A DNA stretch of 64,000 bases from Candidatus Thalassarchaeaceae archaeon (GTDB lineage: Archaea; Thermoplasmatota; Poseidoniia; Poseidoniales; Thalassarchaeaceae). Below, in pieces: positions 977 through 62,203 of the stretch (its first letter is position 1; each line of letters starts with the position of its first letter). The notes below the pieces were generated by a model. It saw only the letters and a list, made by a program, of their open reading frames with translations, ran no database searches and was not told the DNA's origin. Position numbers and translations under genes: made by a program. Location: positions 608 through 64,607 of the forward strand of contig JASLKP010000006.1 in NCBI GenBank assembly GCA_030747485.1, written 5' to 3'.

Positions 977-2716
977 TCAAACTCGCCTTCGAAGTTTCTC
1001 CATGATTTCATCGGCCTGACCCAAGGAGGAAAGACAGCCCTCAAGTTCACCTTTCTCATGGGCATCAGCCGCAGCAGCAACTGCTTTCTCGCAGGCTGCA
1101 CGCTCTCCATCTATCGCCTTGATTCCACGTGACTCCAATTTCTTCCTTAGCGCAGACCACTCATCCTGCACATAGGTTAGCAATTCATTGGCATCTCCAC
1201 TGGCAGATGCAAGTACATCCAAATCTGAGGTCATTCGATCTAACAGTGTTGCAGCGTGTGACCATGATTTTCGCTTGGAGGCTGCTTCAACTGCTGACAA
1301 TCGCTCTTCCCATTCATCAGCATCTGAGCGACCCTTCCATTGCTTCTTGATGACTTTCTTTTGTCGTAATGCACGTTGGACATCACCCATCGCTTCACGC
1401 TCTTTGCGCACTTCACGAATGATACCATCTGACATCCCTCGTGCAAGGCTAAACTCTCCTGCATCGAGATGGGCTTTAGCCTGACCAAGGCGGTCTTGCC
1501 AAAGTTTGAGGTCGAGGCCCTCGGATTCTTCCATCACCATGGCCGCTTCTTCGTAAGCCTCGTCAGCACCTTCAGAGGCCTGGCCAAGATTAGAGACATG
1601 TTCTGGAATCGCCTCAGCGATTTCCAATGCCAGTAAACAATCCTCATTGGCTAGAGCCTCCTTGGCTTGTCTCAACAAATCGTGTAATTGTTCGTGTTGG
1701 CTACCCTGAAGTTCAGCAATCATCTTGCTTGACTCAGCGATTTGATTCTCAGCAGCCACCCAATTCTCGATGATGTTGATGGCGAGTTTCTTCGCGCGTC
1801 GAAACAATTGTTCTGCCTCGCGTAGACTTCCGAGATTCTGCTCTCGATCACCTTGATCCATACTCCGCTGTGGCTTCTTTGCAGTGGGTGCAATCTCTGT
1901 AGCTTCAGCAACTACGGCTGCACACACATCGCGAATTTCACTGATGTCTTCGGCTAAAGCCAGAGTTCGTTCAACATCTTCTTCTGCCTCTTCTAGTATC
2001 TTGAAACCTAGTTCTGGGTCTTTGTAACCAACATCCGCTGCATTTCGACATAGAGAAGAGGCTTGGTCAAGACCAACGCCTTTGGCCTGTAGTTCCAAAA
2101 TTCGCATTTCAAGGGCATCGAGTGTTTTGCCAAATCGCTTGCGTTCTGCTTTGTCCTCATCACCACTGAACAAATCATATCCCGAAGAGGCAAGGGCCAG
2201 AGTTAGGAATACACCCCCCAAAACCAAACTCTCATCAGCAGGTGGATTCGATAACAAAATGGCGCCACCAATTGTGAATCCTCCAAGTGTCATGATTCCC
2301 CGGAAGCGATGTGCGACCAAACTCCCACGTAACATCTCTCTGGAGCCGTACAAACACACTCCAGCAACAATGAACATCAATCCATGTCCAATCTGAACTG
2401 AACCTGTCGTCGACAATACGTTGACACCTAGAATCGCAAATGCTGGCCAAGCGAGTGAACTACTTGCGCCCAATCTCCCGCGTGCCTGAGGATTGGCATC
2501 TGCTAAATCCTGCAATAGTAGAGCTGCAGCAAGCAATACGCCAACGGCTCCCAATCGATCAAACAAAATCGCATCACCCTCAAGAGCGGGCCACATGTAC
2601 CAGGCAGTGGATGCAATGATGGCAAGAGCACAAATTAGGGCCAACGTAGTCACTCGTTCACGCTGATTTGCAATCTCTGCGTCAATCAACGCAGGTAGTG
2701 AATTCGATGACTCCAT
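977..2716 (-). CDS. Hypothetical membrane protein: about 6 N-terminal TM helices plus a long alpha-helical/coiled-coil C-terminus
   Basis: 579-aa ORF; hydrophobic segments in the first ~185 aa, then A/E/L/R-rich heptad-like sequence. Confidence 0.75.
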   Translation of the reverse strand: MESSNSLPALIDAEIANQRERVTTLALICALAIIASTAWYMWPALEGDAILFDRLGAVGVLLAAALLLQDLADANPQARGRLGASSSLAWPAFAILGVNVLSTTGSVQIGHGLMFIVAGVCLYGSREMLRGSLVAHRFRGIMTLGGFTIGGAILLSNPPADESLVLGGVFLTLALASSGYDLFSGDEDKAERKRFGKTLDALEMRILELQAKGVGLDQASSLCRNAADVGYKDPELGFKILEEAEEDVERTLALAEDISEIRDVCAAVVAEATEIAPTAKKPQRSMDQGDREQNLGSLREAEQLFRRAKKLAINIIENWVAAENQIAESSKMIAELQGSQHEQLHDLLRQAKEALANEDCLLALEIAEAIPEHVSNLGQASEGADEAYEEAAMVMEESEGLDLKLWQDRLGQAKAHLDAGEFSLARGMSDGIIREVRKEREAMGDVQRALRQKKVIKKQWKGRSDADEWEERLSAVEAASKRKSWSHAATLLDRMTSDLDVLASASGDANELLTYVQDEWSALRKKLESRGIKAIDGERAACEKAVAAAADAHEKGELEGCLSSLGQADEIMEKLRRRV

Positions 2717-2730
2717 CGCCTACGGCGATG
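2714..2730. repeat. C-RTA-G triloop palindrome, copy 1 (catcgcc-TAC-ggcgatg)
   Basis: Perfect 7-bp inverted repeat that includes the start codon of the 579-aa gene. Confidence 0.8.
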
Positions 2731-2757
2731 CTCAGCCCCTCTAAGAGTCGTCCGCCT

Positions 2758-5052: not shown

Positions 5053-5061
5053 GATTTCACC

Positions 5062-6054: not shown

Positions 6055-6098
6055 CGAATGCGCCGACCCACCGTACCCTCTTCAAGACCTTCGGCTTC

Positions 6099-6115
6099 CG
6101 ATTCCATAGGAATCG
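6099..6115. repeat. C-RTA-G triloop palindrome, copy 2 (cgattcc-ATA-ggaatcg)
   Basis: Perfect 7-bp inverted repeat in the divergent kinase/pyrB promoter region. Confidence 0.8.
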
Positions 6116-6176
6116 CCCTCTGGCACCACCCCAATGAATAAGTCCGAGAGTCGAGCGGCAGATATTGGAGAGGCAG

Positions 6177-8593: not shown

Positions 8594-8638
8594 ATGGGGC
8601 GCGAAGTGATACACCCCTTCAAATCGACCACTCAAACT

Positions 8639-16963: not shown

Positions 16964-17056
16964 ACGAAATACCTCACCACATCAGCCCGGACGTGTATGC
17001 TGAGACGCCGAAGTGGGACTTAAGACCGTTGCGCGATGTTGGAAGGCTAGTGCTTC

Positions 17057-17073
17057 CCCGCCCGTAGGGCGGG
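17057..17073. repeat. C-RTA-G triloop palindrome, copy 3 (cccgccc-GTA-gggcggg)
   Basis: Perfect 7-bp inverted repeat directly after the PRC-barrel stop codon. Confidence 0.8.
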
Positions 17074-17316
17074 TCAACGACTCAAATGGATGTCCTCGTC
17101 CACTTTCTCAACCTCTTCTGTGGGGACCAATAGATGATCACCATATGTTGGCCAAGGCAGTAAATTTGGATCCAATCCCGAATCTAATTCTAGCAACATG
17201 CCAAGGACATTGCCTGTTGCTTCATCCACGACTAAATCAGCAATGATTCCAAGCAAGTCACCTCGGCTATCAACGACTCTACGTCCAGTTAATTCTGAAC
17301 TGAAAGCCGCTGGCAA
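17074..17316 (-). CDS. PRC-barrel domain protein (CdpB-like)
   Basis: SELTGRRVVDSRGDLLGIIADLVVD...LLVPTEEVEKVDEDI; TTG start preceded by GAGGTGA. Confidence 0.85.
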   Translation of the reverse strand: MPAAFSSELTGRRVVDSRGDLLGIIADLVVDEATGNVLGMLLELDSGLDPNLLPWPTYGDHLLVPTEEVEKVDEDIHLSR

Positions 17317-25644: not shown

Positions 25645-25663
25645 TGAACCCCTATGGGGTTCA
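25645..25663. repeat. C-RTA-G triloop palindrome, copy 4 (tgaacccc-TAT-ggggttca)
   Basis: Perfect 8-bp inverted repeat just upstream of the TATA-like ctatatg of the sdh operon. Confidence 0.8.
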
Positions 25664-25710: not shown

Positions 25711-26571
25711 ATGGGCGCGAACATTCCTCTTCCAATGAAGAAAGGATTCGGTGCAACCGATCGTATTGATGCTTGGTGGAAGGGACCAACCGCCATGGCT
25801 GCCTATCTTGGAATCATGATTATCTACGCAACATGGCGCGGATTCATGGAAGCCGATTTCTGGATTTTTGCGGAGTATGGATTGTCCGGGGGACAAGGGG
25901 GGCATGCAGGAACAATGGCAATTGAAAGTGAAGGTAGCCATGTCTTGAGTCCTCTCTTTAGCCCATTGATTCTTCCAGGAGAGGGAGCACTTGGAGGACC
26001 AATTCCAAAGTGGCTTTGGTGGATGTCTCCTGCAATGTTTATTCTGGTCTTCCCAGCAGGATTCAGAGGTACCTGTTACTATTATCGAAAGGCATACTAC
26101 AGAGCATTTTTCCAACAACCTACCGCTTGTGCGGTTAGTAAACCATGGAATACATACAAAGGTGAAACTGGAATTCTAGTCGCTCAAAATCTTCATCGAT
26201 ATTTCATGTACGCAGCACTTGCATACCTTCCAATCCTATCATGGGATGTCTATCTTTCAACTCAATTTACAGGAGGGGGTTTGGGTGTATCAGTGGGTAC
26301 ACTCGTGCTTGCGCTAAACGTTGCATTGTTGGGCGGATATACACTTGGATGTCACGCATTTAGACACATTGTAGGTGGTGGAGCCAACGATTGGACGTCT
26401 TCACCACTTGCACGACTGAAATACAAATTATGGAAATTCAGTACGGTACTGAATGAACGCCACAAAGATTGGGCATTGTACTCTCTCTTTTGGGTCATGT
26501 TCGCTGATTTCTACATCTATGCTTGCACCATGGGTTGGTGGACAGATATTGTCATCTGGGGGGGATTGTGA
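25711..26571 (+). CDS. sdhC: Succinate dehydrogenase membrane anchor, mycobacterial Sdh1 (Rv0249c-like) type
   Basis: [36 protein letters not shown] motifs; first gene of the sdhCAB operon. Confidence 0.8.
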
Positions 26572-29273: not shown

Positions 29274-29543
29274 TCAAAGATGATCAACGCGAATCTTCTT
29301 CACGTTGGCCTTCTTAATCTTACCCTTACCCTTCAGCCACGCTGGTGCAGATGCTGGGGGGTCAACCATTGAGATTGAACCCGTAAACACGTGCACGCGC
29401 TTGGTTCCGCGCTCGCGTAGGTGTATGTCAGTTGCGCCACGAGTGGCTGCCTTCAAAGCCGCGCCACGAGGCTGGCGGCTTGCGAAGACCTGGCTTGTGT
29501 CTTTTCCGCCCTTCATCAGAACGAAGTATTTCTTTTCTCCCAT
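29274..29543 (-). CDS. mc1: Non-histone chromosomal protein MC1
   Basis: YFVLM...VFASRQPRGAALKAATRG...IHLRERGTKRVHVFTG...PAWL; GAGGTGA SD. Confidence 0.92.
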   Translation of the reverse strand: MGEKKYFVLMKGGKDTSQVFASRQPRGAALKAATRGATDIHLRERGTKRVHVFTGSISMVDPPASAPAWLKGKGKIKKANVKKIRVDHL

Positions 29544-30052: not shown

Positions 30053-33000
30053 TTACTCTTCTTCTCGATATGCATCAATTTGTTCCTGAGACCAACCAGC
30101 CTCAATCAATTGTTCATCGGTCCAATCTGTAATTTCAGTCATTTCAGACAATGATGTAGGCGATAACCCCGCCATTTCCAACAAAATCTCATCACTTTCC
30201 TCTCCTGCTGTTTTGGACCATGCATCATCTGGTAGAACTTCTTCTTCAATTGGAAGGTCATCAGAGCGGTTGGAGACGAATATACCAGAGATAAGCAAGA
30301 GTAGAAGCAAGAAAAGTCCAACCACTCCAATCACAATTCCAGTCAGTGCAGAAGGAGGACCCTTTGAGGTCTCATCTGTGGTTTCATTTACTGTAGCGGA
30401 CTGGTTTGCCTCGCGCGCGCGTAGGAGAATCTCACGATTGACAGACAATCCACTCTCATCTAAACAAGCGATTTGGAAGGTGTAATTGGTCTCTGAATCA
30501 CCAGTAGGGGTCCATGCATGAATCCAATCTCCACCAGCATCAGGATGGAATAATTCAGAGATTACAGTGATTCCATTGGGTTCAGTCATTAGAATTGAGC
30601 ACTCAGTGCCATCATTACCATCTGCATCAATAATATTGAACTTCAGAGTAGATTCTTTTCCTGAAGTTAAATCAGTCGGCATCTCTGAGAAATCCAATTG
30701 TGGTGTTGCACCTCGGAAATCAACCATCAATGGATTTGAAAATCCGTTCAAACCATCAATATCTCGTAGGTATACAATCATCTCAATGGAACCAAGAGGA
30801 AATGAATTCAGATACGAATCTAAGACCAGAATTCGGTAATATCGATTCTCTTCTCCTGTCCCTGGTGTACATGCCGCAGGTGGGACCATCTCAATCATGG
30901 TCTCGATTGGAGCATTCATTTCGTGGCCGGGTTCTGCTGAGAATTGGATTCCACCTAATTCAATTGGTCTTCCTTCAGGTATTCCAATCCAAACGTATAC
31001 TCCAGTGACACCACGCGTCAAATAATCAACAGAAACACTGCCCTCACAGATGATTGGAGCCGATAATATGGGAGGCGTCAAGAAAACAGGGCGTGTCCAT
31101 TCCCATGAAAGATTCGTCCAAGTCCCGTTGGTAATTGTAGCAGTGATAATGCCCTCACCTTGTTCAAGACCTGCAGGGGCTGTGACCGTCGGTGATGTTA
31201 CGAGTTGAGAGCCAGAACCTGGCCACTCGATTTCGATTGAGAGTTCAAATTCAACAAACGGGTCATCCTCATCTGTAATTTGAAGATCAATTACATCGGA
31301 CGCACCACTGAGATAATTCACGTTAAGGAGTTCTGCTGTTGGTGCGAGGTCAATTGGAATCAACGTACGATTTGCCCATTCAACCCCCTCGGCATAGAGA
31401 CTCATTTGGATGGGCTCTAGGGACCCACCTGCAGGTGGTTGCCAATTGATTTGGTAACATGTCTGACTACCGGAAGTACTGGAAATTTGAAGTTGTGGTA
31501 AATCGATTCCATCAATTTGAATTCTTGGTGAATCAGGATGATATTGATGATCCAAATCGATGACACACGCGGTGATAATATGCTGCTGGCCTCGAATCCA
31601 ACCTGAGGCATTTGGAGATAATGTGTCTGCTCCAGTCCATGGTGAAGCATCAACACCTTCGACGTGTGGACCATACCAAGTAGATGGGGCATCGACAATG
31701 GTGAAGGCATCATCCCATTGCATGCTATCTGAGAGATTTGATGCGTCGACAACAAACCAATGTAAATCAACTGAGGTCAGAGGTATATCGGCTGGTAATG
31801 TGATACTAGCAACCCACCGAGATGGTGAGGATATACTACCTGCGCTGATGTTAGCCCACGAACCATTCCACCAATCCAAACGCCATGAAAGGGTAGCAGC
31901 GACCACACCAAAATCGTCGTCAACTTGAACTTCACAAGTTACAATTCCTCCACGAGCAGCTTCAGTGGTAGAACAAATTGAACCCGTGATTTCAGGACCT
32001 TCGTTAATCTGAGTATTCAGTGTTGCTAGATTGTTATCGATGACTCGCTCTGGGTGTGAATTCGCAGGAATCCATCGAACAATGAACTCGATGTATCCAG
32101 TTCTAACCGGTGTTATATTCACAGGTAAGATTAGGCGACTTCCCTGATCATTGCCACCTGGAATTGTCATTGAAATATTGGCCAATAATATACTACCTTG
32201 ACGATCTCGAACCTCAAGGTAACCTACGGCTTCAGCAGGTGCAAGATTTTCCATGAGTACCTCCAAGGTACCATTCACATCCTTGCTCAACATGACGGGG
32301 GTGCGTACATCGGAGATATTCACATCATGTAATCGATTAGAATAGGCTGCCATCTTCGGGTCACCAACCACAACACCCATCCATGATAGGAGAACGTTGG
32401 AAGCCGCATAGCATTCCGCAAGGGTGAAACCTTGAGCATAACATTCGAAGAGTTGTTCTGGATTGGAAATTGCTGATAGATAAGGTTCGTAGACATAGCC
32501 TTTGACGCCTGAAACGCCATCCTCTAGTAAATCTGCTACGAGGCTTTGTCCATAATCTGTACCTAGAGTGAATGTACGCCCCCCCGTACTCACCGCAGTT
32601 TCCGCAATGCTTCCATCAAGCCAAGTAAAATGAGGGCGTATTGGATACAACTTGAGAGTATCAAAGAAAATAGATCCATTGTATGTTCCAGAATCAAATT
32701 CAGCGACCTGGCGAATAGCAATGCTGGTCGCATTAATGTGAGGGCGGAAGCGTAGAACTCGAGATTGCCAATCATCGGAGAATGCTCGACTGTCTGACTG
32801 ATTCGTGGAGAGTGATGTCCCGTTGGAATCTAAGGATTCGACCTCTAACCACCAATCGCCTTCGACCCATCCCTCTCTCATTGAATAACCATCGAGAACC
32901 CAAGCATGTTCTTGCAAATCTGATTCGATTGACCAAACCTGTTCTACAAATGCGGTTGAATTTGATGTTGTATTGAATGATGGGCAAATCCATACAATTT

Positions 33001-35167
33001 CATCGTGAACGTCTGCAACCTCCTCTTCACTCAATGCAGTTTCCCAAATTTGCACCTCGTCAATGACACCAGTAAAATGAGTGCTACCTGCTCGATTCAC
33101 CCCAAATTTGTATAGTTCAATGCTATTGATTGTACCATTGGGAACACTTTGATTGAGAACCTCAACACCATCGATGTAGAGTGTGACATTGTCGTTTTCA
33201 AATGTCGCAACTAGGTGTTGCCATACAGTTGGATCTACGGTTCCAAAACTGTATGAATTATTGTGATATAATTCCCAATTTCCAGGATTTCCACCACTGG
33301 CCATAATCTGAAATGACTCGTCATCCCCTGCAACATCATTGACCGCAATTGCCGAAGAGTATCGGGGCTGACCAGAATGATTGGCCTGTACCCAAAGACT
33401 GACGGTGAAATCAGTAACCATATCGTCAACATCGACGCGAGCTTCATCGTCAACACCATCAAAGAAAGCACAGTTGCCCAAAACACAAGTTCGCCATTGG
33501 CTACCATTTGTTCCTGTGAAATTGAGGTGGGCTGAGCCAACAGAGTCGTTGGCAACATCGCCGCTGTTCTCATCAAATTCCCAATGATGGATGAGTTCCG
33601 ATTCGCGAACGGGATGACTGCTACCACGTGTAAGAACATTTGTTGGAACGGTTTGCTTAGAGATTCCGGGGCCTTCCCATTTGAGTTCTAACCCTGCATA
33701 ACCACCATGCTCAAAGAACTCTGTTCGCAACTCGTGCTCACCAGTTTCAAGCCATACTATTCCTGACTGCTCCTGCATGGAGTGGTGTCCTTGATTATCT
33801 ACAATTTCAACATCATCAATCCAAAGTTTGGACCCATCATCACTGCGCAAATAGAATGTCCAATTCCCAGTTGTTGGAATATGAATTACGCCCGTATGCC
33901 TAGCGCTCCAATATTCAAGGAAGCGACTGTCTAATCCAGTCCAAGCATGCTGTGTTGATGGCCAGTCGATGTTTGGTTCATGTCGAACGAAATCCGGTGT
34001 TCGTCCTGATAAGTTAACCATGGTACTAACATTGTATGTCACACCATTGTTATCGAAGTATTCAGCCAACAATCCATTGGTAGTGGATGCATCGTTAGCA
34101 CCACATGGGGCATCCTCAAGTCGGCCCTCCATAGCAGCATTCCCATTTCTCTTGGTCTCTGTCTGCCGGGCCCACCACCATTGTTCACCTGGAGACAGTG
34201 AAGGACCTACGCCGTCCCAATATCTTGAGCCAGTTGACCATGAACCATCCGATGTATCATATCCTGAATTTGACAATTCATTGTTCGCCCAAACCCCATC
34301 GTTACTACCCCAAGAGGTGTACATCGAGACATTCTCCATGTCGGTGACGAATGTATTGTTTTGATTGAAATGTATAGGGAAGCCCATGCTTGAAATGGTC
34401 GCATCAGTCGTGTAGAGGAGATCATTCCACCACTTGTAACCTGAACCATTTCGATTTGTTGCCAAATCCAACACGGTTAGTCCATGTTGTCCAAAACTAT
34501 TGTTGGTCTTTTCAATGAGATTTAGTGCGGTATCCAAATCATAACCAGTCAATCGAGTGACAAGATAGTAGCCTTGTTCTAATCGGTTAAATTCACTCAT
34601 CTCATTTCCAGCGGCTAAACCATAGTTTGAGGTTGCATACCAATCTGCATGAATGCTACTGGCAAATGGACCACCTATCAATGCAATTTCAGAATCAAAA
34701 GAGGCCCGAGAGTTGGTCCCACCATTCACTCGGAGAGGTACGCCTTTCGTCGTCACCAGAACATTGAGTTCAGTGAGATTTCGATTCTGAATCATTTCTT
34801 GAATTGGTGTAACGAAGAATGTGTCGAATTGATCATTGTTGATTGTCTCCCCCGTAGGAGTGCTCTCATTGGTCAATAAGAAGATCCGTTCAGAAGGGAT
34901 GCCTCTAGCATCTGCAAATGCATATCCAATGACTCTGCTGACTTCACTTTCGTTATTGATAATAATCGCGACATCACTGTAATCTGCCATCGACATATGA
35001 TTGAATGGAGTCGAAACTGCAACGTCTCTAAACGGTGTTTCATTCCAAGAATCAACATGCACCCCTCCTTCGGAGGGAAGGTTCTCAATCGCTTGAATCG
35101 GAGTGAAAGATGCCCAAGATTGCAGCAAAATTAGCAAGACCAGAGCATAGGCCTGACGGGAACGCAC
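30053..35167 (-). CDS. Large surface protein: TIGR03790 domain with PA14 and LamG inserts, Ig/CARDB-like repeats, C-terminal TM
   Basis: LVTTKGVPLRV, YLVTRLTG, SWGSND, VSGVKGYVYEPYL; PA14 YLRSDDGSKLWID; LamG HHWEFDE...FTGVIDEVQIW; start uncertain (GTG 35167 or 35197). Confidence 0.8.
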   Translation of the reverse strand: MRSRQAYALVLLILLQSWASFTPIQAIENLPSEGGVHVDSWNETPFRDVAVSTPFNHMSMADYSDVAIIINNESEVSRVIGYAFADARGIPSERIFLLTNESTPTGETINNDQFDTFFVTPIQEMIQNRNLTELNVLVTTKGVPLRVNGGTNSRASFDSEIALIGGPFASSIHADWYATSNYGLAAGNEMSEFNRLEQGYYLVTRLTGYDLDTALNLIEKTNNSFGQHGLTVLDLATNRNGSGYKWWNDLLYTTDATISSMGFPIHFNQNNTFVTDMENVSMYTSWGSNDGVWANNELSNSGYDTSDGSWSTGSRYWDGVGPSLSPGEQWWWARQTETKRNGNAAMEGRLEDAPCGANDASTTNGLLAEYFDNNGVTYNVSTMVNLSGRTPDFVRHEPNIDWPSTQHAWTGLDSRFLEYWSARHTGVIHIPTTGNWTFYLRSDDGSKLWIDDVEIVDNQGHHSMQEQSGIVWLETGEHELRTEFFEHGGYAGLELKWEGPGISKQTVPTNVLTRGSSHPVRESELIHHWEFDENSGDVANDSVGSAHLNFTGTNGSQWRTCVLGNCAFFDGVDDEARVDVDDMVTDFTVSLWVQANHSGQPRYSSAIAVNDVAGDDESFQIMASGGNPGNWELYHNNSYSFGTVDPTVWQHLVATFENDNVTLYIDGVEVLNQSVPNGTINSIELYKFGVNRAGSTHFTGVIDEVQIWETALSEEEVADVHDEIVWICPSFNTTSNSTAFVEQVWSIESDLQEHAWVLDGYSMREGWVEGDWWLEVESLDSNGTSLSTNQSDSRAFSDDWQSRVLRFRPHINATSIAIRQVAEFDSGTYNGSIFFDTLKLYPIRPHFTWLDGSIAETAVSTGGRTFTLGTDYGQSLVADLLEDGVSGVKGYVYEPYLSAISNPEQLFECYAQGFTLAECYAASNVLLSWMGVVVGDPKMAAYSNRLHDVNISDVRTPVMLSKDVNGTLEVLMENLAPAEAVGYLEVRDRQGSILLANISMTIPGGNDQGSRLILPVNITPVRTGYIEFIVRWIPANSHPERVIDNNLATLNTQINEGPEITGSICSTTEAARGGIVTCEVQVDDDFGVVAATLSWRLDWWNGSWANISAGSISSPSRWVASITLPADIPLTSVDLHWFVVDASNLSDSMQWDDAFTIVDAPSTWYGPHVEGVDASPWTGADTLSPNASGWIRGQQHIITACVIDLDHQYHPDSPRIQIDGIDLPQLQISSTSGSQTCYQINWQPPAGGSLEPIQMSLYAEGVEWANRTLIPIDLAPTAELLNVNYLSGASDVIDLQITDEDDPFVEFELSIEIEWPGSGSQLVTSPTVTAPAGLEQGEGIITATITNGTWTNLSWEWTRPVFLTPPILSAPIICEGSVSVDYLTRGVTGVYVWIGIPEGRPIELGGIQFSAEPGHEMNAPIETMIEMVPPAACTPGTGEENRYYRILVLDSYLNSFPLGSIEMIVYLRDIDGLNGFSNPLMVDFRGATPQLDFSEMPTDLTSGKESTLKFNIIDADGNDGTECSILMTEPNGITVISELFHPDAGGDWIHAWTPTGDSETNYTFQIACLDESGLSVNREILLRAREANQSATVNETTDETSKGPPSALTGIVIGVVGLFLLLLLLISGIFVSNRSDDLPIEEEVLPDDAWSKTAGEESDEILLEMAGLSPTSLSEMTEITDWTDEQLIEAGWSQEQIDAYREEE

Positions 35168-35216
35168 GGCTTCGCACGCCCTACATCGACATTTCACGGT
35201 GTCGGGCAGATGTCAA

Positions 35217-35233
35217 CGGCACCTATGGTGCCG
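35217..35233. repeat. C-RTA-G triloop palindrome, copy 5 (cggcacc-TAT-ggtgccg)
   Basis: Perfect 7-bp inverted repeat in a divergent promoter region (if the macro gene starts at 35297). Confidence 0.8.
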
Positions 35234-35939: not shown

Positions 35940-36011
35940 GCGCACGTGATCTAGCGGTTATGATGTATGGTTCCCAACCATGCCACCCGAGTTCAAATCT
36001 CGGCGTGCGCA
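35940..36011 (+). tRNA. tRNA-Gly(CCC)
   Basis: Acceptor GCGCACG/CGTGCGC, anticodon arm TATGG-TTCCCAA-CCATG, T-arm CCGAG-TTCAAAT-CTCGG; no intron, CCA not encoded. Confidence 0.93.
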
Positions 36012-41138: not shown

Positions 41139-41235
41139 AGCAATCCCAAACCGCGGAACATCACTTGGATGTTGAGGGTTCGCCTTCTTCGATTAATGAC
41201 AGGGTCGGAATAGGTTGATATCAGGTATTGCCGGG

Positions 41236-41252
41236 TGTCGGCGTAGCCGACA
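41236..41252. repeat. C-RTA-G triloop palindrome, copy 6 (tgtcggc-GTA-gccgaca)
   Basis: Perfect 7-bp inverted repeat 20 nt upstream of the ATG at 41273. Confidence 0.8.
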
Positions 41253-41272: not shown

Positions 41273-44200
41273 ATGCGGAAAATAGCGATTCTACTCCTTG
41301 CAACCCTGCTTTTCTCCTATACTCTGCCATTTGCTTCGGCCGTCACCGAAACACAGTACTCTGACGGTACGACTACCTTCACCCATGTCTTCAGTCAATC
41401 TGGAGATGCGGCAACACCTGGGGTAACATTGCCATATGGTGCAAATGTAGAAGATGTGGAATTTGTAATCGAAGGTGAAGCATCACAGCAGAATTGGATT
41501 AACCTCTCTGTCGATAGGGACTTCAATGGTCCAGGAACCACGAATACAAACTTCAATCCAACTTGGTTTAACGGTGGCTATCGAACAAACCTCGCTTCGG
41601 AAAATGATGAATTGCAACTCAATACTCAAGAGACCACTTCGTATTGGTCATTGACATCCAGCAATGATGTGGCCAGTAGTTCAGGAGGAGTTCTCAACAC
41701 CACTGGCGGCCATTTCTCGATGTCTGAGAATGGAATGATGGGAATCACGACAGAACGAACGGAAACATTGACTGGAGGGAATTGGAATTATGTCGGACCA
41801 GTCATCAAGCAATATGATGAAATCCATGTCACCAAATGGACATCTACAAGCCTTTACAATACACCCTCTATGTATCGATACAACGCAACAACTGGAACAT
41901 ATATTGGAATCACGAACTTGAATATCGGATCGTGCACATCTTCTGCTTCGGCATATGTCTATGATGTAACAAGTGACGGAAATGGCACCGTTTGGATGGT
42001 GTCATATTCCTATCGATACATCTCTCGTTGGACATATAATCCGACTGCAAATCCACCAACCTATACCTGCCAGCAGAGTTGGTCGGTACCAACCTCTGGT
42101 TCCACGCGATACCCATACGGGATTGCCTTTGATCCAACAGATAATGAAATGTATTTCCTAACAGGAACATATCAAAGTCCATCATATATCGTCGAGTTGT
42201 GGAAGGTGAATCGTTCATCACCTACCACATCTCAGGCTAGTTGGACTCTTGGGACGATTCAGAGTGGCCACGGAATACCATCTGGACTAGACGTCCAAAT
42301 GCCTCGAATAACCTACAATGTCTTTTGCTCATCTTCCACTACAATATCAACAAATTGCAAAGCAAGATCTTACCTGAGTGTATACCATACCACTGGAACG
42401 TGGCCAGAACATCAAGGCGACATTCTCTACGATATGCCAATTTATGGTCTTGAACGAATAGATGATGAACTCGCTTTCACTTGTTATTATTCTTCAGTCT
42501 GTCCATCGGGCCAAACTCGGAAAGTGAATATCATAGGCACTAGTACTCCGTCATGGACTGGTACGCCCAGTAGCACTGCAGCAATCATTACATCTAGCGT
42601 GAAAACACTGTCTAGTCCAGTCACCCAAGTCAAGTTAGGGGCTGCTGTGACTTGGGAACCCACTGGGACATCAGTTGATTTCATGGTTACAAATGATGGG
42701 GGCACCACTTGGAAGAGAGCAACCACAGGAAATACTGTGACTTTTGCCAATGGAGGTACTCAAATTGCTTGGAAGGCTTGGCTCAATGGTACCACTACCG
42801 ACGCTCCCATTCTAGATTCTGTAGGACTATCCTACACTGCGTCCTATTCCCCAACTGGTCAAGTTCGGATGTATTATTATGCCTTCCAAACAGGCAATAC
42901 GATGCCTGTGGCGTCAACGATTTGGTGGAATGCGTCAACACCAGGTGGTAGTTCACTTGATTTCTATTGGTACACTGGTTCATCAGCTTGTAACGGGAAA
43001 ACGCATAATATTGCTAGTTCTGGATCTACGGTAACGTTCTCTGGAACAACAAGTTATCTCACCCTCTGCATTGATTTCGATGCTGGAACAAATAACGAAT
43101 ACACGCCAACACTTTACGATTTTAATGTTGTAACTTACACCAATGCTCCGCAAAATGTCAAACTCGACATTGGAGATGACAACACATTCGAATGGAGTCA
43201 TACAGGAAACCTTCTGAGTCGAATAACTGTCTCAAACAGTGAAATGATTGACAGTTTCAACGATTTGGTGCCACAAACGGGTACTGGAACCATTGTGATT
43301 CCAATCAATCTGCACTCCGGTTCTGCAGGAAAAGTGAACATCCTATCAATGAGTATTGAGTATACAATGGTGACTGTAAATCTCGATTTGCAATATGATG
43401 AGAACATGGTATTGCACGAACGTTCAGAACCATATGAAATCATCACAAGGCATGTGATTGGTGACAACTCATTGAGTATCACAAATGCCGAATTAACCTT
43501 CCTTGCATCCCCTAGTTCAGATGCTCCGAAACTATCATGGACAAATGATGGAACATTAGTGGATGATGATCCTGAAGATTGGATTATTCCTGATCAAAGT
43601 ACAACATGGACATCTACAACAAACGGAATCTTTGAGATTCATTGGATGTTCAGAGTCACCGATGATTTCCCAGAACAGAATAATGTTGGTTTCCGAGTGA
43701 GTTGTACTGATGACAATGGTTTCACTCCTGAAACACTGGCAACAGTTTCTACTGGAATTTATGTCAACCAATCCTATGGATTGGGATGGTTAAATTTGCA
43801 TGATGTCGAAGGAGAAGTAACTGAGAATGATGTACAAGATGGACATTGGATTGTTGCCGGAGAAACGGTGCACTTCCAAGGACAAATTTGGTTCTCAGGA
43901 ACACAAGATGCCCCACTGAATTCTGTCTTTGATGTTAGAGTCGTGAGAAAAGACAGCCAGGGTGATTTTACTGCCGCGTCGTGGAAGGATACCTCGAATG
44001 CAAATGGTTCCTTCTTCATCTCTGTCGAAATTCCTTCTATGGATATTCCCGATGGAGTAACATTTGAAATTCAAATCTACAATGAACGTGACCCTACAAA
44101 GGTCCTAGCGACTGAAAATTCGTGGCGACGAACGGTTCGGGTGGACAATTCACCGCCAGCAATCAGTGCTAATTGGCCTGCTGATGATGATTACGAAGCC

Positions 44201-46318
44201 TCGAGTGAAGCACAGCAAATTGCCATCACCATTGATGACGCTATTGGGCAGCCAACGAATCTAACGCTGCACTATTGGGTTGAAGCGGATCATGATACAA
44301 ATCGAAATGGTGTCGCTGATGAAGAAGAATACGTGAATCAAACGTTAACAAATGTCACTGAAGATGCTGAGAAGGTGTTCTTTGGTATCATTGATGACTC
44401 AAGGAATCCAAACATGGCTCGTGTTTCCTACTATGTGTCTGGAACGGATGTCGCTGGAAATCAATTGGTATCACCAGATGGTCCAGGGTTTGGATATGAT
44501 CTCGCCACTTATCGTACTCGAAAAGATATGGCATCCGTATTCACTGGTCTTGACTGGGTTGGCCACTCAGATGGGAATGATGTATTCAGTGGTACTGAAC
44601 AATCAATCTCTGTAGGATTGGTAGATGCAAATGGAATTATCGATTTTGAATACATTGCACTCATCTTTGATTTTGAAGGGCCAGACCCTGAAAGAGATCA
44701 GCAGCGAATGTGGTACGATGGAAGAGAAGATTCGTGGTTCTACGATGAAGCATATCTTGAATTATTATCGAGCAGTTCAACGACTGTTACAACCAACAAC
44801 TCTGGACTCCCATGGATTTTCATTGACTTTGATTTCAAGTTCTCATGGGATTGGCCAGATGAAGACATTTCTGATTTGGCCTTAGAATACAAGGAACTTG
44901 GTTCACCGACTCCAACTAGAATCGAATTTAGCGAACATACATTCAGTGTAGAGAACGATTTGGTGTTGAATGCGAATTCATACTCTGTTGAAGATGTGGC
45001 TGAACCAAGAGTTGGGCCACTTGACGATGCGACACCCGTCAGACCTGACGACAGACTCCGATGGTCAGGTCATGTCGTTTACGAAGATAGCAATGTGCCA
45101 GCACCCAATGATTTGGGAATTACTGTTGAAGTCTTTGATGGCGTTCAATACTGGTCAGATGGAAGCCTTGCAGATGATGGTAGCTTCAGTATTGAAGTTC
45201 CATTGTCTGCAGCCACCTCATTGCAGAGTGCCGAAAGTCGAACATTCCTCACAGGCGTGCGAAATGTGCCTGGTCGTGGAGAAGACATGACCAGAGATAC
45301 TGTTGCAACCACCTTGCAATTACAGGTGGATCACACACCCCCACGTGTTCATCATCGAATGGAACCAATCGATGTAATCGACATCTCTACAGACAGCGAT
45401 TTGACCTCTGTCCCTGTCAGGTTTGTCGGTTGGGAAGAATGTCTGTTAGCAGACGAAAATGACCGTTGTGCAGCCTTTGGACAAAGTCCACAATGGGTGA
45501 ACTGGGTCATGCGTGACGATGTTCGAACAATTGCAGCTGGACAATCGCCTCTTGCCATGCAAGTACTCGATGGAAGTATCGAATGGATTGGAGAAGTAGA
45601 CCTAACCAGTGATGGTGTCGTTACGCCTCGTTCTGGCTATCGTGTTGGGTTCTGGATTACTGGGCACGACGCAGCAGGAAATGAATTCCCAATGACTGCA
45701 AATACAGAGAGCGACCCTGTGCGTGAACGCACTGAAGATGATGGTGACTTCGATCTCGCTTGGGTGAGATTAGGAGCAACTGTACCAGAATTAATTGTGC
45801 AAAGTGTGACACTTGAGGAAGACACAGTTAGTGAAGGTTCAGAGATTAAGGTCGTTGCAATCATTGCCAATGTTGGAGGCGTGAATGCCTCATCATTTAC
45901 AGTGAAGTTCTTCGCTGGAGACAAAGAGATTACCACGGAGAGAATCGCAGGACTACCTGAGGATACTGATCATCGGATTGAAACCACCTGGAAAGCCAAA
46001 AAAGGTGTTGACAGAATTACTGTAATCGTTGATGCTGACAATGAAGTTGTCGAAGTTGATGAAGAAGGGAACAGCATGTCAGTGGGTATTTCGGTTGAAT
46101 ATTCATGGGGAATGGGCTGGATTGATAGTTGGCGAAAGAATCCACTCACTGTGATTGGAGTCATTTTCGCATTCATCTTGTTACCAGTCATTGCAGTAAT
46201 TACCTGGAAGACATCATTGTCTGGTGCTCAGGACCTCTATGCTGAGGAACTACACTACGAAGACGAAGATGACGACGAATGGGAATACGAAGACGAAGAT
46301 GACGATGGATGGGAGTGA
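41273..46318 (+). CDS. Giant (1681 aa) secreted surface protein: beta-rich N-terminus, Ig-like repeats, CARDB domain, C-terminal TM and acidic tail
   Basis: Signal peptide MRKIAILLLATLL; S/T/N/G-rich; CARDB-like IVDADNEVVEVDEEGN; TM followed by a D/E-rich tail. Confidence 0.8.
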   Translation: MRKIAILLLATLLFSYTLPFASAVTETQYSDGTTTFTHVFSQSGDAATPGVTLPYGANVEDVEFVIEGEASQQNWINLSVDRDFNGPGTTNTNFNPTWFNGGYRTNLASENDELQLNTQETTSYWSLTSSNDVASSSGGVLNTTGGHFSMSENGMMGITTERTETLTGGNWNYVGPVIKQYDEIHVTKWTSTSLYNTPSMYRYNATTGTYIGITNLNIGSCTSSASAYVYDVTSDGNGTVWMVSYSYRYISRWTYNPTANPPTYTCQQSWSVPTSGSTRYPYGIAFDPTDNEMYFLTGTYQSPSYIVELWKVNRSSPTTSQASWTLGTIQSGHGIPSGLDVQMPRITYNVFCSSSTTISTNCKARSYLSVYHTTGTWPEHQGDILYDMPIYGLERIDDELAFTCYYSSVCPSGQTRKVNIIGTSTPSWTGTPSSTAAIITSSVKTLSSPVTQVKLGAAVTWEPTGTSVDFMVTNDGGTTWKRATTGNTVTFANGGTQIAWKAWLNGTTTDAPILDSVGLSYTASYSPTGQVRMYYYAFQTGNTMPVASTIWWNASTPGGSSLDFYWYTGSSACNGKTHNIASSGSTVTFSGTTSYLTLCIDFDAGTNNEYTPTLYDFNVVTYTNAPQNVKLDIGDDNTFEWSHTGNLLSRITVSNSEMIDSFNDLVPQTGTGTIVIPINLHSGSAGKVNILSMSIEYTMVTVNLDLQYDENMVLHERSEPYEIITRHVIGDNSLSITNAELTFLASPSSDAPKLSWTNDGTLVDDDPEDWIIPDQSTTWTSTTNGIFEIHWMFRVTDDFPEQNNVGFRVSCTDDNGFTPETLATVSTGIYVNQSYGLGWLNLHDVEGEVTENDVQDGHWIVAGETVHFQGQIWFSGTQDAPLNSVFDVRVVRKDSQGDFTAASWKDTSNANGSFFISVEIPSMDIPDGVTFEIQIYNERDPTKVLATENSWRRTVRVDNSPPAISANWPADDDYEASSEAQQIAITIDDAIGQPTNLTLHYWVEADHDTNRNGVADEEEYVNQTLTNVTEDAEKVFFGIIDDSRNPNMARVSYYVSGTDVAGNQLVSPDGPGFGYDLATYRTRKDMASVFTGLDWVGHSDGNDVFSGTEQSISVGLVDANGIIDFEYIALIFDFEGPDPERDQQRMWYDGREDSWFYDEAYLELLSSSSTTVTTNNSGLPWIFIDFDFKFSWDWPDEDISDLALEYKELGSPTPTRIEFSEHTFSVENDLVLNANSYSVEDVAEPRVGPLDDATPVRPDDRLRWSGHVVYEDSNVPAPNDLGITVEVFDGVQYWSDGSLADDGSFSIEVPLSAATSLQSAESRTFLTGVRNVPGRGEDMTRDTVATTLQLQVDHTPPRVHHRMEPIDVIDISTDSDLTSVPVRFVGWEECLLADENDRCAAFGQSPQWVNWVMRDDVRTIAAGQSPLAMQVLDGSIEWIGEVDLTSDGVVTPRSGYRVGFWITGHDAAGNEFPMTANTESDPVRERTEDDGDFDLAWVRLGATVPELIVQSVTLEEDTVSEGSEIKVVAIIANVGGVNASSFTVKFFAGDKEITTERIAGLPEDTDHRIETTWKAKKGVDRITVIVDADNEVVEVDEEGNSMSVGISVEYSWGMGWIDSWRKNPLTVIGVIFAFILLPVIAVITWKTSLSGAQDLYAEELHYEDEDDDEWEYEDEDDDGWE
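43768..43784. repeat. C-RTA-G triloop palindrome, copy 7, intragenic (ccaatcc-TAT-ggattgg)
   Basis: Perfect 7-bp inverted repeat inside the 1681-aa CDS; may be a chance match. Confidence 0.55.
46256..46315 (+). repeat. 30-bp tandem duplication encoding YEDEDDD(E/G)WE twice
   Basis: tacgaagacgaagatgacgacgaatgggaa / tacgaagacgaagatgacgatggatgggag. Confidence 0.8.
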
Positions 46319-54120: not shown

Positions 54121-54147
54121 TTGTCCGTCGCCTTCAAGCCTAAAGAG

Positions 54148-54164
54148 CGGTTCCGTAGGAACCG
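54148..54164. repeat. C-RTA-G triloop palindrome, copy 8 (cggttcc-GTA-ggaaccg)
   Basis: Perfect 7-bp inverted repeat between the TATA-like cttcaag and the serS ATG. Confidence 0.8.
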
Positions 54165-54173
54165 GAGAACCCT

Positions 54174-55457: not shown

Positions 55458-55467
55458 ATTGATTTTA

Positions 55468-55953: not shown

Positions 55954-55961
55954 CAAATCAC

Positions 55962-57503: not shown

Positions 57504-57510
57504 GGTGTAT

Positions 57511-59993: not shown

Positions 59994-60015
59994 TCGCACC
60001 CCCCTAGGGGTGCGA
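59994..60015 (-). promoter_or_regulatory. 9-bp stem hairpin abutting the liuB start codon
   Basis: Minus strand TCGCACCCC-TAGG-GGGGTGCGA-ATG. Confidence 0.5.
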
Positions 60016-60045
60016 TAGGTCATCGACCCTTGAACACTCTGTCAA

Positions 60046-61353
60046 TCAAATACCAAGCGTTAGACGTAAAATGTCACGTAACCCTGGTGCCAAACCCACA
60101 GTAAGCAAGCAGAGAATCACCAACAATCGTAGGTGCCGATGACGCTGTTCAAATCGGGCTGATGCAAACAAGAACCAAACCACTCCTGCAAGTACAAATT
60201 TTAGGGCAGCGAAACCCCAAGCAGCACCACTCAATTCAATCACTTTTTGAGAAAGTACATGTTTCTCAGAATAACCAAAATGATCTACGCCCAAATATGT
60301 CGCTAGACCATCCACCATTTGACCGTACATGGCCAACAATACAACTGGAACAGATAGCATAGCCATTGGAGATAGTGATTCCATTCGCTCAAAGGTTGAT
60401 GAACGCTGATTTTCCCAATCATCAATCGTGATTCCCAAAGGTATGATTCCGGGCTCCAACCCCATGTGGTGTAATGCAATTCTAGAATGCCTACCAATTG
60501 ACCAACATGTAAGGCAAATGAAGAGAGGTAACAAGATCACCACAGCCATCGGCCACAGAGGTTCTGTTTGATTATTTTCAAGTGGTTGAACATACATCGA
60601 AAACCAAGCTGAAAGATGTAGGAAACTGCCTCCAATTCCAACCTGCATTAGTCCCTGTTCGATTGGAGTCAAGAATTCAACAAGTATCGGATGTAAGGCA
60701 ATGATGAGAATGATACCAGAAAGAGGGAACCACAAGAGAGGAGAGGTGATATTAACATCCCAATGATATAGAAATTGAGGCCAGAAACAGACGATTTGTA
60801 GCAACACGAGAATGACGGATAATTGAGTGACAGATTGGCGACCCTCAACTCCCTCGCTTAGGTACACTCGATGACTCATGAATGCAGTAATTACCACCCA
60901 TAGAGCAACATGGAAATGCACCAATGGCGATACGAATAATGCACCAATACCATCTCTGAATAATGCCCCATCTTCATTGACTTCCCCCAAGGCAGCCCAA
61001 AGTACCCAAGGCAGAAGGGCAATCAATGATTGATCCCGTGGTGGAAAACCCATTTTTCGCAACCATGCTGATATGACTACAACGAATGATACCAGTAAGA
61101 CCGAATAGGCGACTGTATCTACTGGATTGTAACCCGCGTCGCCTTGAGTTGAGTCTTGATTGAGTGGATCTAGAAAATTTGTCTGTACTGTTTCTGATAG
61201 AGTATTTCCTGGTACAAGGTCGTTCCCAACAACTGCTCCAATGAAAAGAATCAGAGCGCTCAAGATAATCCAAGCAGCAAAACGTTCCATTAGAGAAAGG
61301 TGAGCATCTGGAATCGGTTTGACCGAAATCAAGGGACTCGGTTCATCAGCCAT
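60046..61353 (-). CDS. DUF63-family polytopic membrane protein
   Basis: GYNPVDT near the N-terminus; GQMVDGLATYLG...YSEKHVLS; GLAPGLRDILR at the C-terminus. Confidence 0.8.
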   Translation of the reverse strand: MADEPSPLISVKPIPDAHLSLMERFAAWIILSALILFIGAVVGNDLVPGNTLSETVQTNFLDPLNQDSTQGDAGYNPVDTVAYSVLLVSFVVVISAWLRKMGFPPRDQSLIALLPWVLWAALGEVNEDGALFRDGIGALFVSPLVHFHVALWVVITAFMSHRVYLSEGVEGRQSVTQLSVILVLLQIVCFWPQFLYHWDVNITSPLLWFPLSGIILIIALHPILVEFLTPIEQGLMQVGIGGSFLHLSAWFSMYVQPLENNQTEPLWPMAVVILLPLFICLTCWSIGRHSRIALHHMGLEPGIIPLGITIDDWENQRSSTFERMESLSPMAMLSVPVVLLAMYGQMVDGLATYLGVDHFGYSEKHVLSQKVIELSGAAWGFAALKFVLAGVVWFLFASARFEQRHRHLRLLVILCLLTVGLAPGLRDILRLTLGI

Positions 61354-61408
61354 CAAAGCACCCCAAGGTAGACCACTCTAAGCGGTTTCCCGAAAGAGAT
61401 TCTGAATA

Positions 61409-62113
61409 TCATTCCTCTTCGGAAGCCTCGGGAATTTCACGTGCCTCGTGAACTTCACGGAAGACGATTGTCCCAACGCCGACATGCTCTCGCAGAGTAC
61501 TAATCAAACTGAACTTTGTATATGCCCAATTTTGATCGTAAGAGACGAACTCAGGCAATGTGATTGTAACATCATCACCATCGAACTCAACTTCAAAACC
61601 ATCGCGGCCGCTGTTTGTTTCTAGTAGAGTAGTTACCTTATCAGCACGATCTTCAATGACCTTGACAATACGGTAATTATAGCGCAGTGTACGACCTGCC
61701 AATGGATGATTAAAATCGATACGAGCTCGTCCTGCACGGAACATTTGGAGGACCCCTTGCTTACCTCCAATTTCTACGGGACCACCGACAGAAAGACTCT
61801 CTGGATCGCGAACTGAACGAGCAAGAACATCCATCGACATTGTTTCTACAGAACCTGGGTCCCTTTCACCATAAGCATCCTCTGGAGCGATATCAAACGA
61901 ATAATCTGTATCGGGCTCTGCCTCTGCAAGATGAGACTCAAATCCTGCAATTAGACGACCGTCACCAATGACTGCAATGAGGGGTTTGTATGTTCGATTT
62001 TCATCAAACTTGTCAGACTCCTTTGCAATCTCTTCGCGAGTCGTTTCGATGAGAGTATCATCATCGGCATTGTACAAGTCATAGTCGATGTGTACGATTG
62101 AACCATTCTCCAT
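61409..62113 (-). CDS. FKBP-type peptidyl-prolyl isomerase (long archaeal SlyD-like)
   Basis: VHIDYD...ETT, PEDAYGER, IDFNHPLAGRTL. Confidence 0.92.
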   Translation of the reverse strand: MENGSIVHIDYDLYNADDDTLIETTREEIAKESDKFDENRTYKPLIAVIGDGRLIAGFESHLAEAEPDTDYSFDIAPEDAYGERDPGSVETMSMDVLARSVRDPESLSVGGPVEIGGKQGVLQMFRAGRARIDFNHPLAGRTLRYNYRIVKVIEDRADKVTTLLETNSGRDGFEVEFDGDDVTITLPEFVSYDQNWAYTKFSLISTLREHVGVGTIVFREVHEAREIPEASEEE

Positions 62114-62188
62114 AGGGGTCACCTACCCAGTGTTGGGCGGCTCGGCGACCGACTCCCCCTTTATGAGCGGTCCGGCTGCATCATGAGC

Positions 62189-62203
62189 GAGCCCGTAGGG
62201 CTC
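62189..62203. repeat. C-RTA-G triloop palindrome, copy 9 (gagccc-GTA-gggctc)
   Basis: Perfect 6-bp inverted repeat overlapping the ccmF stop codon; shares gcccgtagggc with copy 3. Confidence 0.7.

Follow-up and report, generated by a model that had tools for sequence, protein, structure and literature searches.

The window, that is, the whole stretch of 64,000 nucleotides (nt) analysed here, is part of a 1.41-Mb genome in 69 contigs (G000), listed as 72% complete, from a Candidatus Thalassarchaeaceae archaeon. It belongs to the marine Group II archaea, which are among the most abundant archaea of surface seawater and are uncultured; to our knowledge, almost nothing is known of how transcription starts and stops in this group. 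The genes concerned are ordinary housekeeping genes, encoding seryl-tRNA synthetase, aspartate carbamoyltransferase, a GHMP kinase, an FKBP isomerase, a macro-domain protein and a PRC-barrel protein. Next to them lie short perfect palindromes with unrelated arms and a spacer of 3 nt, closed by a C-G pair, which reads RTA on one strand and TAY on the other (R, G or A; Y, C or T). In the following they are called C-RTA-G palindromes, and nine sequences of this form occur in the window, on both sides of various open reading frames (ORFs):

2714..2730, reverse strand: start-proximal hairpin CATCGCC-GTA-GGCGATG; the ATG of ORF 977-2716 is the last 3 nt of its 3' arm
6099..6115, no strand assigned: hairpin CGATTCC-ATA-GGAATCG, in the divergent region between the GHMP kinase gene (reverse) and the aspartate carbamoyltransferase gene (forward)
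17057..17073, no strand assigned: stop-proximal hairpin CCCGCCC-GTA-GGGCGGG, directly behind the stop codon of the PRC-barrel ORF 17074-17316 (reverse)
25645..25663, no strand assigned: hairpin TGAACCCC-TAT-GGGGTTCA, in a divergent intergenic region
35217..35233, no strand assigned: hairpin CGGCACC-TAT-GGTGCCG, between the start of ORF 30053-35197 (reverse) and the macro-domain gene (forward)
41236..41252, forward strand: hairpin TGTCGGC-GTA-GCCGACA, 29 nt before the ATG of the 1681-residue ORF 41273-46318
43768..43784, no strand assigned: chance palindrome CCAATCC-TAT-GGATTGG, inside ORF 41273-46318 and no member of the family
54148..54164, forward strand: start-proximal hairpin CGGTTCC-GTA-GGAACCG, followed by GGAG and the ATG (54174) of the seryl-tRNA synthetase gene
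62189..62203, no strand assigned: stop-proximal hairpin GAGCCC-GTA-GGGCTC, overlapping the stop codon of ORF 62202-63956 (reverse)

The nine palindromes had been listed in a preliminary description of the window, and their positions, arms and loops are all confirmed, with arms of 7 bp in seven copies, 8 bp at 25645 and 6 bp at 62189. When perfect inverted repeats with a 3-nt spacer and arms of at least 6 bp were collected, 44 were found in the window, nine of them with a C-RTA-G (or C-TAY-G) centre; with arms of at least 7 bp the proportion is 8 of 18. In 200 dinucleotide-preserving shuffles of the window, such centres occurred on average 0.19 times (maximum 2) with arms of at least 6 bp, and 0.07 times (maximum 1) with arms of at least 7 bp, so that the expectation of 0.06 copies calculated earlier for the longer stems is sound. 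The genome-wide scan returned 732 repeats with a 3-nt spacer, of which 121 are C-RTA-G palindromes, 76 of them CGTAG/CTACG and 45 CATAG/CTATG. The next classes of closing pair and loop are CGAAG (24), CTAAG (14) and CAAAG (12), and no class other than C-RTA-G exceeds 24; the proposed enrichment over other triloops and over shuffled sequence is therefore borne out. The centre extends to CC-RTA-GG in 89 of the 121 copies (55 CCGTAGG and 34 CCATAGG). A chance origin was rejected on the basis of the shuffles and of internal C-NNN-G controls, and a sister family with tetraloops or other loops was likewise rejected, since spacers of 1, 2, 4 and 6 nt yield no comparable hairpin family and no standout class. 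As a separate observation, once the nine C-RTA-G copies are set aside the window still holds 35 repeats with a 3-nt spacer against 20.3 +/- 4.3 (maximum 31) in the shuffles, among them two with 8-bp arms at 26436 and 27797.

The pairing of the arms is strict. Among the 3009 C-RTA-G 5-mers of the genome, the next six pairs are all Watson-Crick in 97 cases and five of the six in 46, whereas for the 146,494 other C-NNN-G 5-mers the corresponding figures are 134 and 912. The mismatch is the outermost pair in 24 of the 46 C-RTA-G cases with five pairs, and the internal single mismatches include three G.T and five A.C, both at chance level. Because the distribution of pairing is bimodal and G.T and A.C are no commoner than chance, the real family consists of all-or-none perfect Watson-Crick palindromes, without an excess of G.T. 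This differs from what would be expected under selection on RNA only, where G.U is normally tolerated. The arms measure 6 bp in 24 copies, 7 bp in 55 and at least 8 bp in 42; they are GC-rich, with C favoured on the 5' side adjoining the loop on both strands. Apart from the closing CC/GG, that is, the 2-3 bases next to the loop, and the loop itself, the arms of the 121 copies have nothing in common, which agrees with the earlier view that structure and not sequence unites them. For the eight real copies of the window, the predicted folding energies as single-stranded DNA range from -5.7 to -8.8 kcal/mol.

The position of the copies relative to genes was read from a map made with our own crude ORF caller (1062 ORFs, longest starts). 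On this map the intergenic copies number 76 of 121; a further 22, at most 60 nt from the 5' end of a longest ORF, are probably upstream of the true start, three lie within 30 nt of an ORF 3' end and 16 deep inside ORFs. Of the other 611 repeats with a 3-nt spacer, 534 are inside ORFs and 77 between them. In the window, eight of the nine palindromes are outside coding sequence, as had been noted, the exception being 43768. Among the 76 intergenic copies, 51 are in tandem spacers, 24 in divergent ones, one is at a contig edge and none is convergent; convergent spacers make up 8,824 of the 77,898 intergenic bases (11%), so that by our own arithmetic P is about 1e-4 for 0 of 76, although these spacers are few, only 30 being at least 20 nt long. 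The copies are thus nearly confined to DNA upstream of genes. In tandem spacers the loop centre lies at most 25 nt from the upstream stop codon in 24 of 55 cases and at most 21 nt from the start codon in 19 of 55. The copies of the start-proximal class have their loop centre 5-21 nt before the start codon, which falls in the 3' arm or a few bases away.

Orientation differs between these groups. Start-proximal tandem copies show RTA on the coding strand in 16 cases and TAY in three; stop-proximal tandem copies, which often overlap the preceding stop codon, show TAY in 15 and RTA in nine. Under a looser definition, counting all C-NNN-G triloops, those near starts are GTA in 23 cases versus TAC in six, and R-N-A in 36 versus T-N-Y in 19, while behind stops R-N-A accounts for 10 and T-N-Y for 16. 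The strand rule of the preliminary description, with GTA on the coding strand between TATA box and ATG and TAY on the coding strand upstream of the TATA box, is correct for the copies of the window in G000, and its first half also applies statistically to the start-proximal class of the whole genome; elsewhere it is weak, and its second half is no fixed rule, since the hairpins at 6099, 17057 and 35217 flip between species. The association of the copies with promoters, proposed at the same time, is borne out. Two positional classes can thus be distinguished: start-proximal copies of fixed orientation, and copies upstream of promoters, often just behind the preceding stop codon, that flip freely.

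Conservation was followed in relatives of the same genus, whose DNA is about 70-78% identical around the loci (in round terms, about 75%). In the 14 columns adjoining the arms on both sides, only 0-7 are invariant, whereas the arms do not change. At 2714 the arms are unchanged in 17 of 18 genomes, G004 having no hairpin, and the loop on the coding strand is GTA in five, GGA in six, GAA in four, AAA in one and AGA in one, and is never flipped; this series of loops within identical arms in 17 genomes supports the earlier assignment to the C-GNA-G type. At 6099 the arms are unchanged in 22 of 22 genomes, with the loop ATA in G000, G004 and G013, TAT in 16, and TTA, TAA and a 2-nt TT once each; as read from the alignment, ATA versus TAT is a flip. 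The hairpin at 54148 is identical in arms and GTA loop in 15 of 15 genomes, and that at 41236 has unchanged arms in seven of seven, with the loop GTA in two and ATA in five in the same orientation. The 25645 hairpin recurs identically in G016 although its flanks barely align, and the orthologue of 35217 in the same genome has the same arms with the loop flipped to ATA. At 62189 the hairpin is kept in eight of eight genomes, and in G013 a compensatory change of a G-C pair to A-T also turns the stop codon from TGA to TAA.

The 17057 locus is more complex. Its hairpin is found only in G000, G004 and G013 among 21 genomes, with TAC on the coding strand in G000 and GTA in the other two, again a flip. 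The other 18 genomes have a different hairpin nearer the start, with the arms CACATCC-GGATGTG and the loop TAT in 16, TAC in one and GAA in one, of which G000 retains a degenerate remnant. The palindrome at 43768, inside a gene, was rejected as a member of the family and counted as chance: it is not palindromic in seven of eight relatives, while in the eighth, G012, it is perfect with other arms (CCAGTCC-TAC-GGACTGG) through synonymous changes only. This double palindrome may reflect quasi-palindrome correction inside the gene, or coincidence. A further hairpin, of GGGCCC type, lies upstream of 41236 at the orthologues of about 41190-41210 in six relatives and is missing in G000; it is perfect (GGGCCC-TAAC-GGGCCC) in G016, G012 and G008 and variant or imperfect in G014, G007 and G003.

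A second set was taken from contig C11 of G000, where 19 copies were queried and 15 had an aligned relative; the hairpin is kept in at least one relative at 12 of these 15. Compensatory pairs, which had been proposed as a check, occur at C11:150975 (two in G004, one in G067) and at C11:165907 (two in G017, three in G014), in addition to 62189, and a further C-G pair is gained at C11:187891. Loops drift here as well (GTA, GAA and GCA at C11:139428; TAT or TAC to TTT at two loci). Conservation is not general: C11:139428 has a mismatch in G014 and is absent from two genomes, C11:101768 was not found in the relatives queried, and the coding-region copy C11:155606 is, like 43768, not conserved as a palindrome and was counted as chance. 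Judging from these alignments, the palindromes are kept by selection for pairing. Exact flips of the loop, with arms and flanks unchanged, were seen at six loci, namely 6099, 17057, 35217, C11:111693, C11:196174 and C11:133274. Similar events are described for non-coding chloroplast DNA, in which small inversions flip the spacer of hairpins between relatives and are attributed to the hairpin structures (PMC12371153). According to that account, the spacer between short repeats becomes its reverse complement between related genomes while the arms are unchanged, just as here; the comparison concerns mutational behaviour and not function, however, and the archaeal spacer is only 3 nt long and constrained to RTA/TAY (PMC12371153).

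The promoter context of the hairpins is given by the following features of the window, listed with two genes that are referred to below; the spacings from box or motif to gene start at 2714 and 6099, and the hairpin-to-box spacings in the text, that of the 17057 locus included, are hand counts:

2736..2747, reverse strand: putative TATA-like box CTCTTAGAGGGG, centred about 26.5 nt before the A of the ATG at 2716
6062..6089, reverse strand: conserved promoter-like motif, TATA-like CTTGAAG followed by the G-rich block GGGTACGGTGGGTCGGC, about 29 nt before the GHMP kinase start
16978..16995, reverse strand: degenerate remnant, in G000, of the second hairpin of the 17057 locus
about 29277-29537, reverse strand: gene for the chromatin protein MC1 (PF05854, E 2.9e-21)
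35940-36011, forward strand: tRNA gene (Rfam RF00005, 58 bits)
54131..54140, forward strand: conserved box CCTTCAAGCC, of TTGAAG type across the family, about 38 nt before the ATG; putative TATA box
62144..62169, reverse strand: conserved promoter-like motif of the FKBP gene, CGCTCATAAAG followed by GGGGGAGTCGGTCGCC

The A/T content of 21 start-proximal loci with an R-N-A loop is highest 26-32 nt ahead of the ATG, which is the position expected of the TATA box in archaeal genes that are leaderless or have a very short leader. When all 121 copies are taken together and read in the RTA orientation, a TATA-like pattern is most frequent, though only modestly so, at 21-25 nt upstream of the loop centre. 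The box at 2714 (TCTTAGAG) is conserved in the genus, and G004, which has no hairpin there, keeps the same box 25.5 nt before its ATG. In the 18 genomes with the second hairpin of the 17057 locus, a conserved TCTTAAGG box precedes it, and 27 nt separate the box centre from the 5' end of the hairpin. A fixed distance between hairpin and TATA-like box was rejected, as upstream copies lie 18-40 nt away by hand count and the profile is modest.

Two observations on the promoters of this genome stand apart from the hairpins. A recurrent, strongly conserved promoter-like motif, TATA-like GCTCATAWA or CTTGAAG followed by G-rich GGGGAGCAGGTCGSCG, ends 10-54 nt before the start codon; it occurs in the window at 62144-62169 and 6062-6089 and at about 20 further sites of G000 (for example C1:19639, C8:23582, C11:25650 and C67:60355). 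It was counted in 26 instances, and 20 of the 24 intergenic ones with called flanking genes point at a gene start, so that the motif may mark a regulon or a class of strong promoters. In 263 upstream regions of G000, G is enriched 8-11 nt before the ATG (up to 54%) and A/T rises weakly at -25 to -28, which suggests a mixture of Shine-Dalgarno-led and leaderless genes.

As to known systems, the closest likeness is to the DNA mini-hairpins. Loops of the GNA type closed by C-G are described as forming unusually stable mini-hairpins in DNA, used in phage N4 promoters and in primase signals (PMC13037366). With the promoters of the N4 virion RNA polymerase and the G4 and ssiA primase signals (GCGNAGC type), as they are presented there, the archaeal copies have in common the 3-nt G-N-A loop, the C-G closing pair, the location, putative here, in a region of transcription initiation and the conservation of structure and not of stem sequence; the stem is 5-7 bp in N4 and 7-8 bp here (PMC13037366). 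Over the whole family stems of 6-8 bp make up most copies, and the position between TATA-like box and ATG is a putative one. Mini-hairpins of this type combine the C-G closing pair with a G-N-A loop that holds a sheared G.A pair; in sequence, GTA (76 copies), GAA (24) and the GGA and GCA variants conform to this, and ATA (45) and AAA do not. The differences are considerable: the archaeal elements are cellular, with a folding predicted from sequence, and belong to a host with a multisubunit RNA polymerase; their G-N-A stands on the coding strand; their main loops are GTA and ATA, not GGA or GAA; and there is a second class that is free in orientation. A T7-like polymerase (PF00940) gave no match in G000, but the control likewise matched in no genome.

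Other identities fit less well. Repetitive extragenic palindromes (REP) and bacterial interspersed mosaic elements (BIME) with their RAYT transposases are also short, GC-rich and extragenic and occur in many copies, but REP copies share their sequence, whereas the archaeal arms are unrelated and the copies are mostly single and form no mosaics. Profile searches of the family Thalassarchaeaceae covered 41 genomes of 13 genera, 19 high-quality genomes included; the Y1 HUH transposase (PF01797) was found in none of the 41, G000 included, with the control matching in 6 of 14. A target of a REP/RAYT or IS200-type enzyme was rejected for want of a Y1 transposase and because the arms are unrelated, and the HUH/REP-like target suggested in the preliminary description is not supported. 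The same description had named the chromatin protein MC1 as a possible reader. MC1 is present in 39 of the 41 genomes and in all 13 genera, including those without hairpins; its presence does not track the hairpins, and it was rejected as a discriminating reader.

Intrinsic terminators also have GC-rich stems, and some of the archaeal copies stand directly behind stop codons. Only one or two of them have a T tract, however, and none is convergent while 24 are divergent; the stop-proximal copies were followed by no T run in the sequences examined, except at C11:165907, and classical intrinsic terminators were rejected on these grounds. C11:165907 itself has a 13-bp GC-rich stem with a GTA loop and a preceding A run (a T run on the other strand), and resembles a bacterial intrinsic terminator. 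As a separate observation, several hairpins elsewhere in the genome lie 18-40 nt past tRNA 3' ends (C11:101768, C16:2112 and C33:70796). Repeats associated with bacterial terminators are reported, in the tree-of-life survey of inverted repeats concerned, to have loops mostly of 4-5 nt, versus 3 nt here (PMC13155455). That survey, as described, was confined to arms of more than 9 bp, so that almost every one of the present copies would escape it (PMC13155455). A class of sequence-specific operators was rejected, as there is no conserved half-site and only the 2-3 bases next to the loop are common. With Rfam 15 at the gathering score, no family matched at the hairpins of the window, the tRNA gene being the sole match in the window. 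In the literature library searched, promoter hairpins, palindromes, leaderless starts and TATA boxes were not the subject of any paper on Poseidoniales or marine Group II archaea, in keeping with the earlier remark that no description in the group was known. The family, for which no published description was found, is best classed, from its sequence features, as short extragenic hairpin-forming palindromes of the DNA mini-hairpin type.

The reading that we favour, with a probability of roughly 0.4, is that the palindromes are DNA hairpin or cruciform elements at promoters and at the boundaries of transcription units, acting on the DNA itself rather than as a sequence motif. The strict pairing, the flips and the position between TATA-like box and ATG fit such a DNA-level role, and because pairing is strictly Watson-Crick and exact loop flips recur, the two DNA arms would be expected to interact in vivo; the palindromes probably fold into hairpins that influence transcription. 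Copies of the start-proximal class would occupy the interval from the TATA-like box to the ATG in genes that appear to be leaderless or to have a short leader, at 2714 from roughly -17 to +3 relative to the ATG, with the G/A-N-A loop on the coding (non-template) strand, and the 5' arm would be left untranscribed from that promoter. On unwinding, or on extrusion by negative supercoiling, the non-template strand could fold into a stable C-GNA-G mini-hairpin, which would alter the ease of open-complex formation and in this way tune initiation. Copies upstream of promoters, in either orientation, would form a structural boundary between neighbouring units. By analogy, it is even conceivable, though we think it unlikely, that folded DNA serves as a promoter element in a clade of marine Group II archaea, with a C-GNA-G hairpin tuning initiation on the non-template strand of the stretch to be melted by the polymerase, and with orientation-free cruciform-type palindromes that insulate units and flip in evolution. 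Such a system would parallel, in a cell, the hairpin promoter of N4, and its reader would be the multisubunit RNA polymerase or a hairpin-binding factor.

Several points weigh against a role of the folded DNA. Cruciform extrusion of 7-bp arms is energetically costly. GTA is given as the least stable of the GNA mini-hairpins in vitro (PMC13037366). ATA, for its part, falls outside the GNA type, and thermodynamics alone therefore fails to explain the loop preference. The TATA-like positional signal is modest, with 12 + 9 hits in the -25 to -21 bin among 121 sites, and the boxes and leaderless starts are themselves putative, resting on sequence and a crude ORF caller. The distance from the box centre to the hairpin 5' end varies: it is +12 to +18 nt for the loci 2714, 54148, 6099 and 41236, and about +23 to +27 nt for 62189 and for the second hairpin of the 17057 locus, a spacing with which an RNA would have the hairpin at its 5' end. 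Two hairpins, those of 54148 and 41236, stand just ahead of a Shine-Dalgarno-like GGAG and could lie in a 5' untranslated region (UTR). Lastly, some copies are lost: C11:133274 has decayed in five of six relatives, the 2714 hairpin is missing from G004, and of the C11:128306 hairpin nothing is left in G014, while G004 has a different one in its place.

Some of these points lead to the main rival explanation, in our view not much less probable, namely that selection acts on RNA hairpins at the ends of mRNAs: stem-loops at the 5' terminus or in the 5' UTR that protect from exonucleases or gate the ribosome-binding site and start codon, and stop-proximal ones that stabilise the 3' end or act as hairpin terminators. 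It would account for the way in which the copies hug ORF ends (24 of 55 near a stop, 19 of 55 near a start), for the strand bias near starts (GTA 23 versus TAC 6) with fixed orientation at 2714, 54148 and 41236, for the GGAG-type motif after the hairpin at two of these loci, for the 27-nt spacing from the TATA-like box in 18 genomes at the 17057 locus, where the transcript is expected to start, and for the terminator-like 13-bp stem and T run on the other strand at C11:165907. It is less easily reconciled with the near absence of G.U-type pairs, with flips at six loci that would change GUA to UAC in the RNA, with 24 copies in divergent spacers and none in convergent ones, with the want of a T tract behind stop-proximal copies and with the lack of any Rfam match at the sites. 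Moreover, the ATG of 2714 and of many more start-proximal loci is part of the stem or at most 6 nt away from it, leaving no room for a ribosome-binding site, and such an RNA would be hard to translate unless the hairpin were upstream of the start site.

Two further explanations dispense with folding as the selected property, or with function. Archaeal repressors usually bind just downstream of or beside the TATA box, which is where the hairpins sit relative to the TATA-like boxes, and with CC-RTA-GG in 89 of 121 copies and both orientations in use, the palindromes could be operators for a dimeric protein that reads the duplex, for example at a CC-RTA-GG centre with a kinkable TA step, the GC-rich arms only modulating shape. 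We consider this improbable: a duplex reader would not require arms that differ wholly between loci to be perfectly complementary, compensatory changes keep the pairing and not the sequence, the centre is itself asymmetric, and its middle base is free at 2714. Equally improbable is that the palindromes have little function and merely persist wherever they do no harm, as by-products of events in the DNA itself, such as template switching by which quasi-palindromes are made perfect, or as footprints left by hairpin-forming breaks or by mobile elements. Perfect pairing and loop flips are indeed hallmarks of intrastrand DNA events, the palindrome at 43768 is perfect with different arms in G000 and G012 through synonymous changes, and the distribution among genera is patchy. 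A by-product would hardly keep its arms invariant over 15-22 genomes while adjacent bases drift, avoid convergent spacers, or hold its orientation and G/A-N-A loop fixed at start-proximal loci; mobile-element copies would have arm sequence in common, and none of the 41 genomes has a Y1/HUH transposase.

If the palindromes are DNA hairpin elements, they offer a testable case of genome-wide non-B DNA in a cell, or otherwise of a highly unusual hairpin in RNA. Since they are conserved, are defined by their structure and occur at about one in four of the spacers that bear a promoter, the palindromes provide a handle on gene boundaries in these uncultured archaea, and they could be used in genome annotation as markers of the edges of transcription units. 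The frequent exact loop flips are, in addition, a clean natural example of hairpin-mediated micro-inversion outside organelles.

The taxonomic spread of the family was estimated from samples of 48-400 kb per genome, against a chance density of roughly 0.4 per 100 kb derived from genome-wide C-NNN-G rates. The density of C-RTA-G palindromes per 100 kb is 8.6 in G000, 10.7 in its genus relatives and 3.7-7.0 in six other genera of the same family, and 0 in six further genera of the family, three of them with a GC content below 40%. It is 0 in a second family (80 kb sampled) and 0.5 in the complete genome of a third (2 copies in 400 kb). The palindromes are thus present in 7 of the 13 genera sampled and near-absent in two other families. 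Other Poseidoniales had been named as a place to look for the signal; it is not order-wide, being patchy within one family and rare or absent in the samples of two others. On a seryl-tRNA synthetase tree the hairpin-rich genera are scattered and at least 3-4 changes are needed; a single origin within the family was rejected on this single-gene tree, with presence scored from 48-100 kb samples. At the synthetase locus of other genera, read by eye, a conserved TTGAAG-type box is followed by hairpins with other arms and loops, such as CCAGCCC-TAG-GGGCTGG or the same arms with TGA; in a low-GC genus the hairpin has the loop AAA, and in one genus none is present at this position. Because other genera carry these differing hairpins at the same place, the placement of a hairpin at the synthetase locus is, on the sequences compared, older than the preference for the RTA loop.

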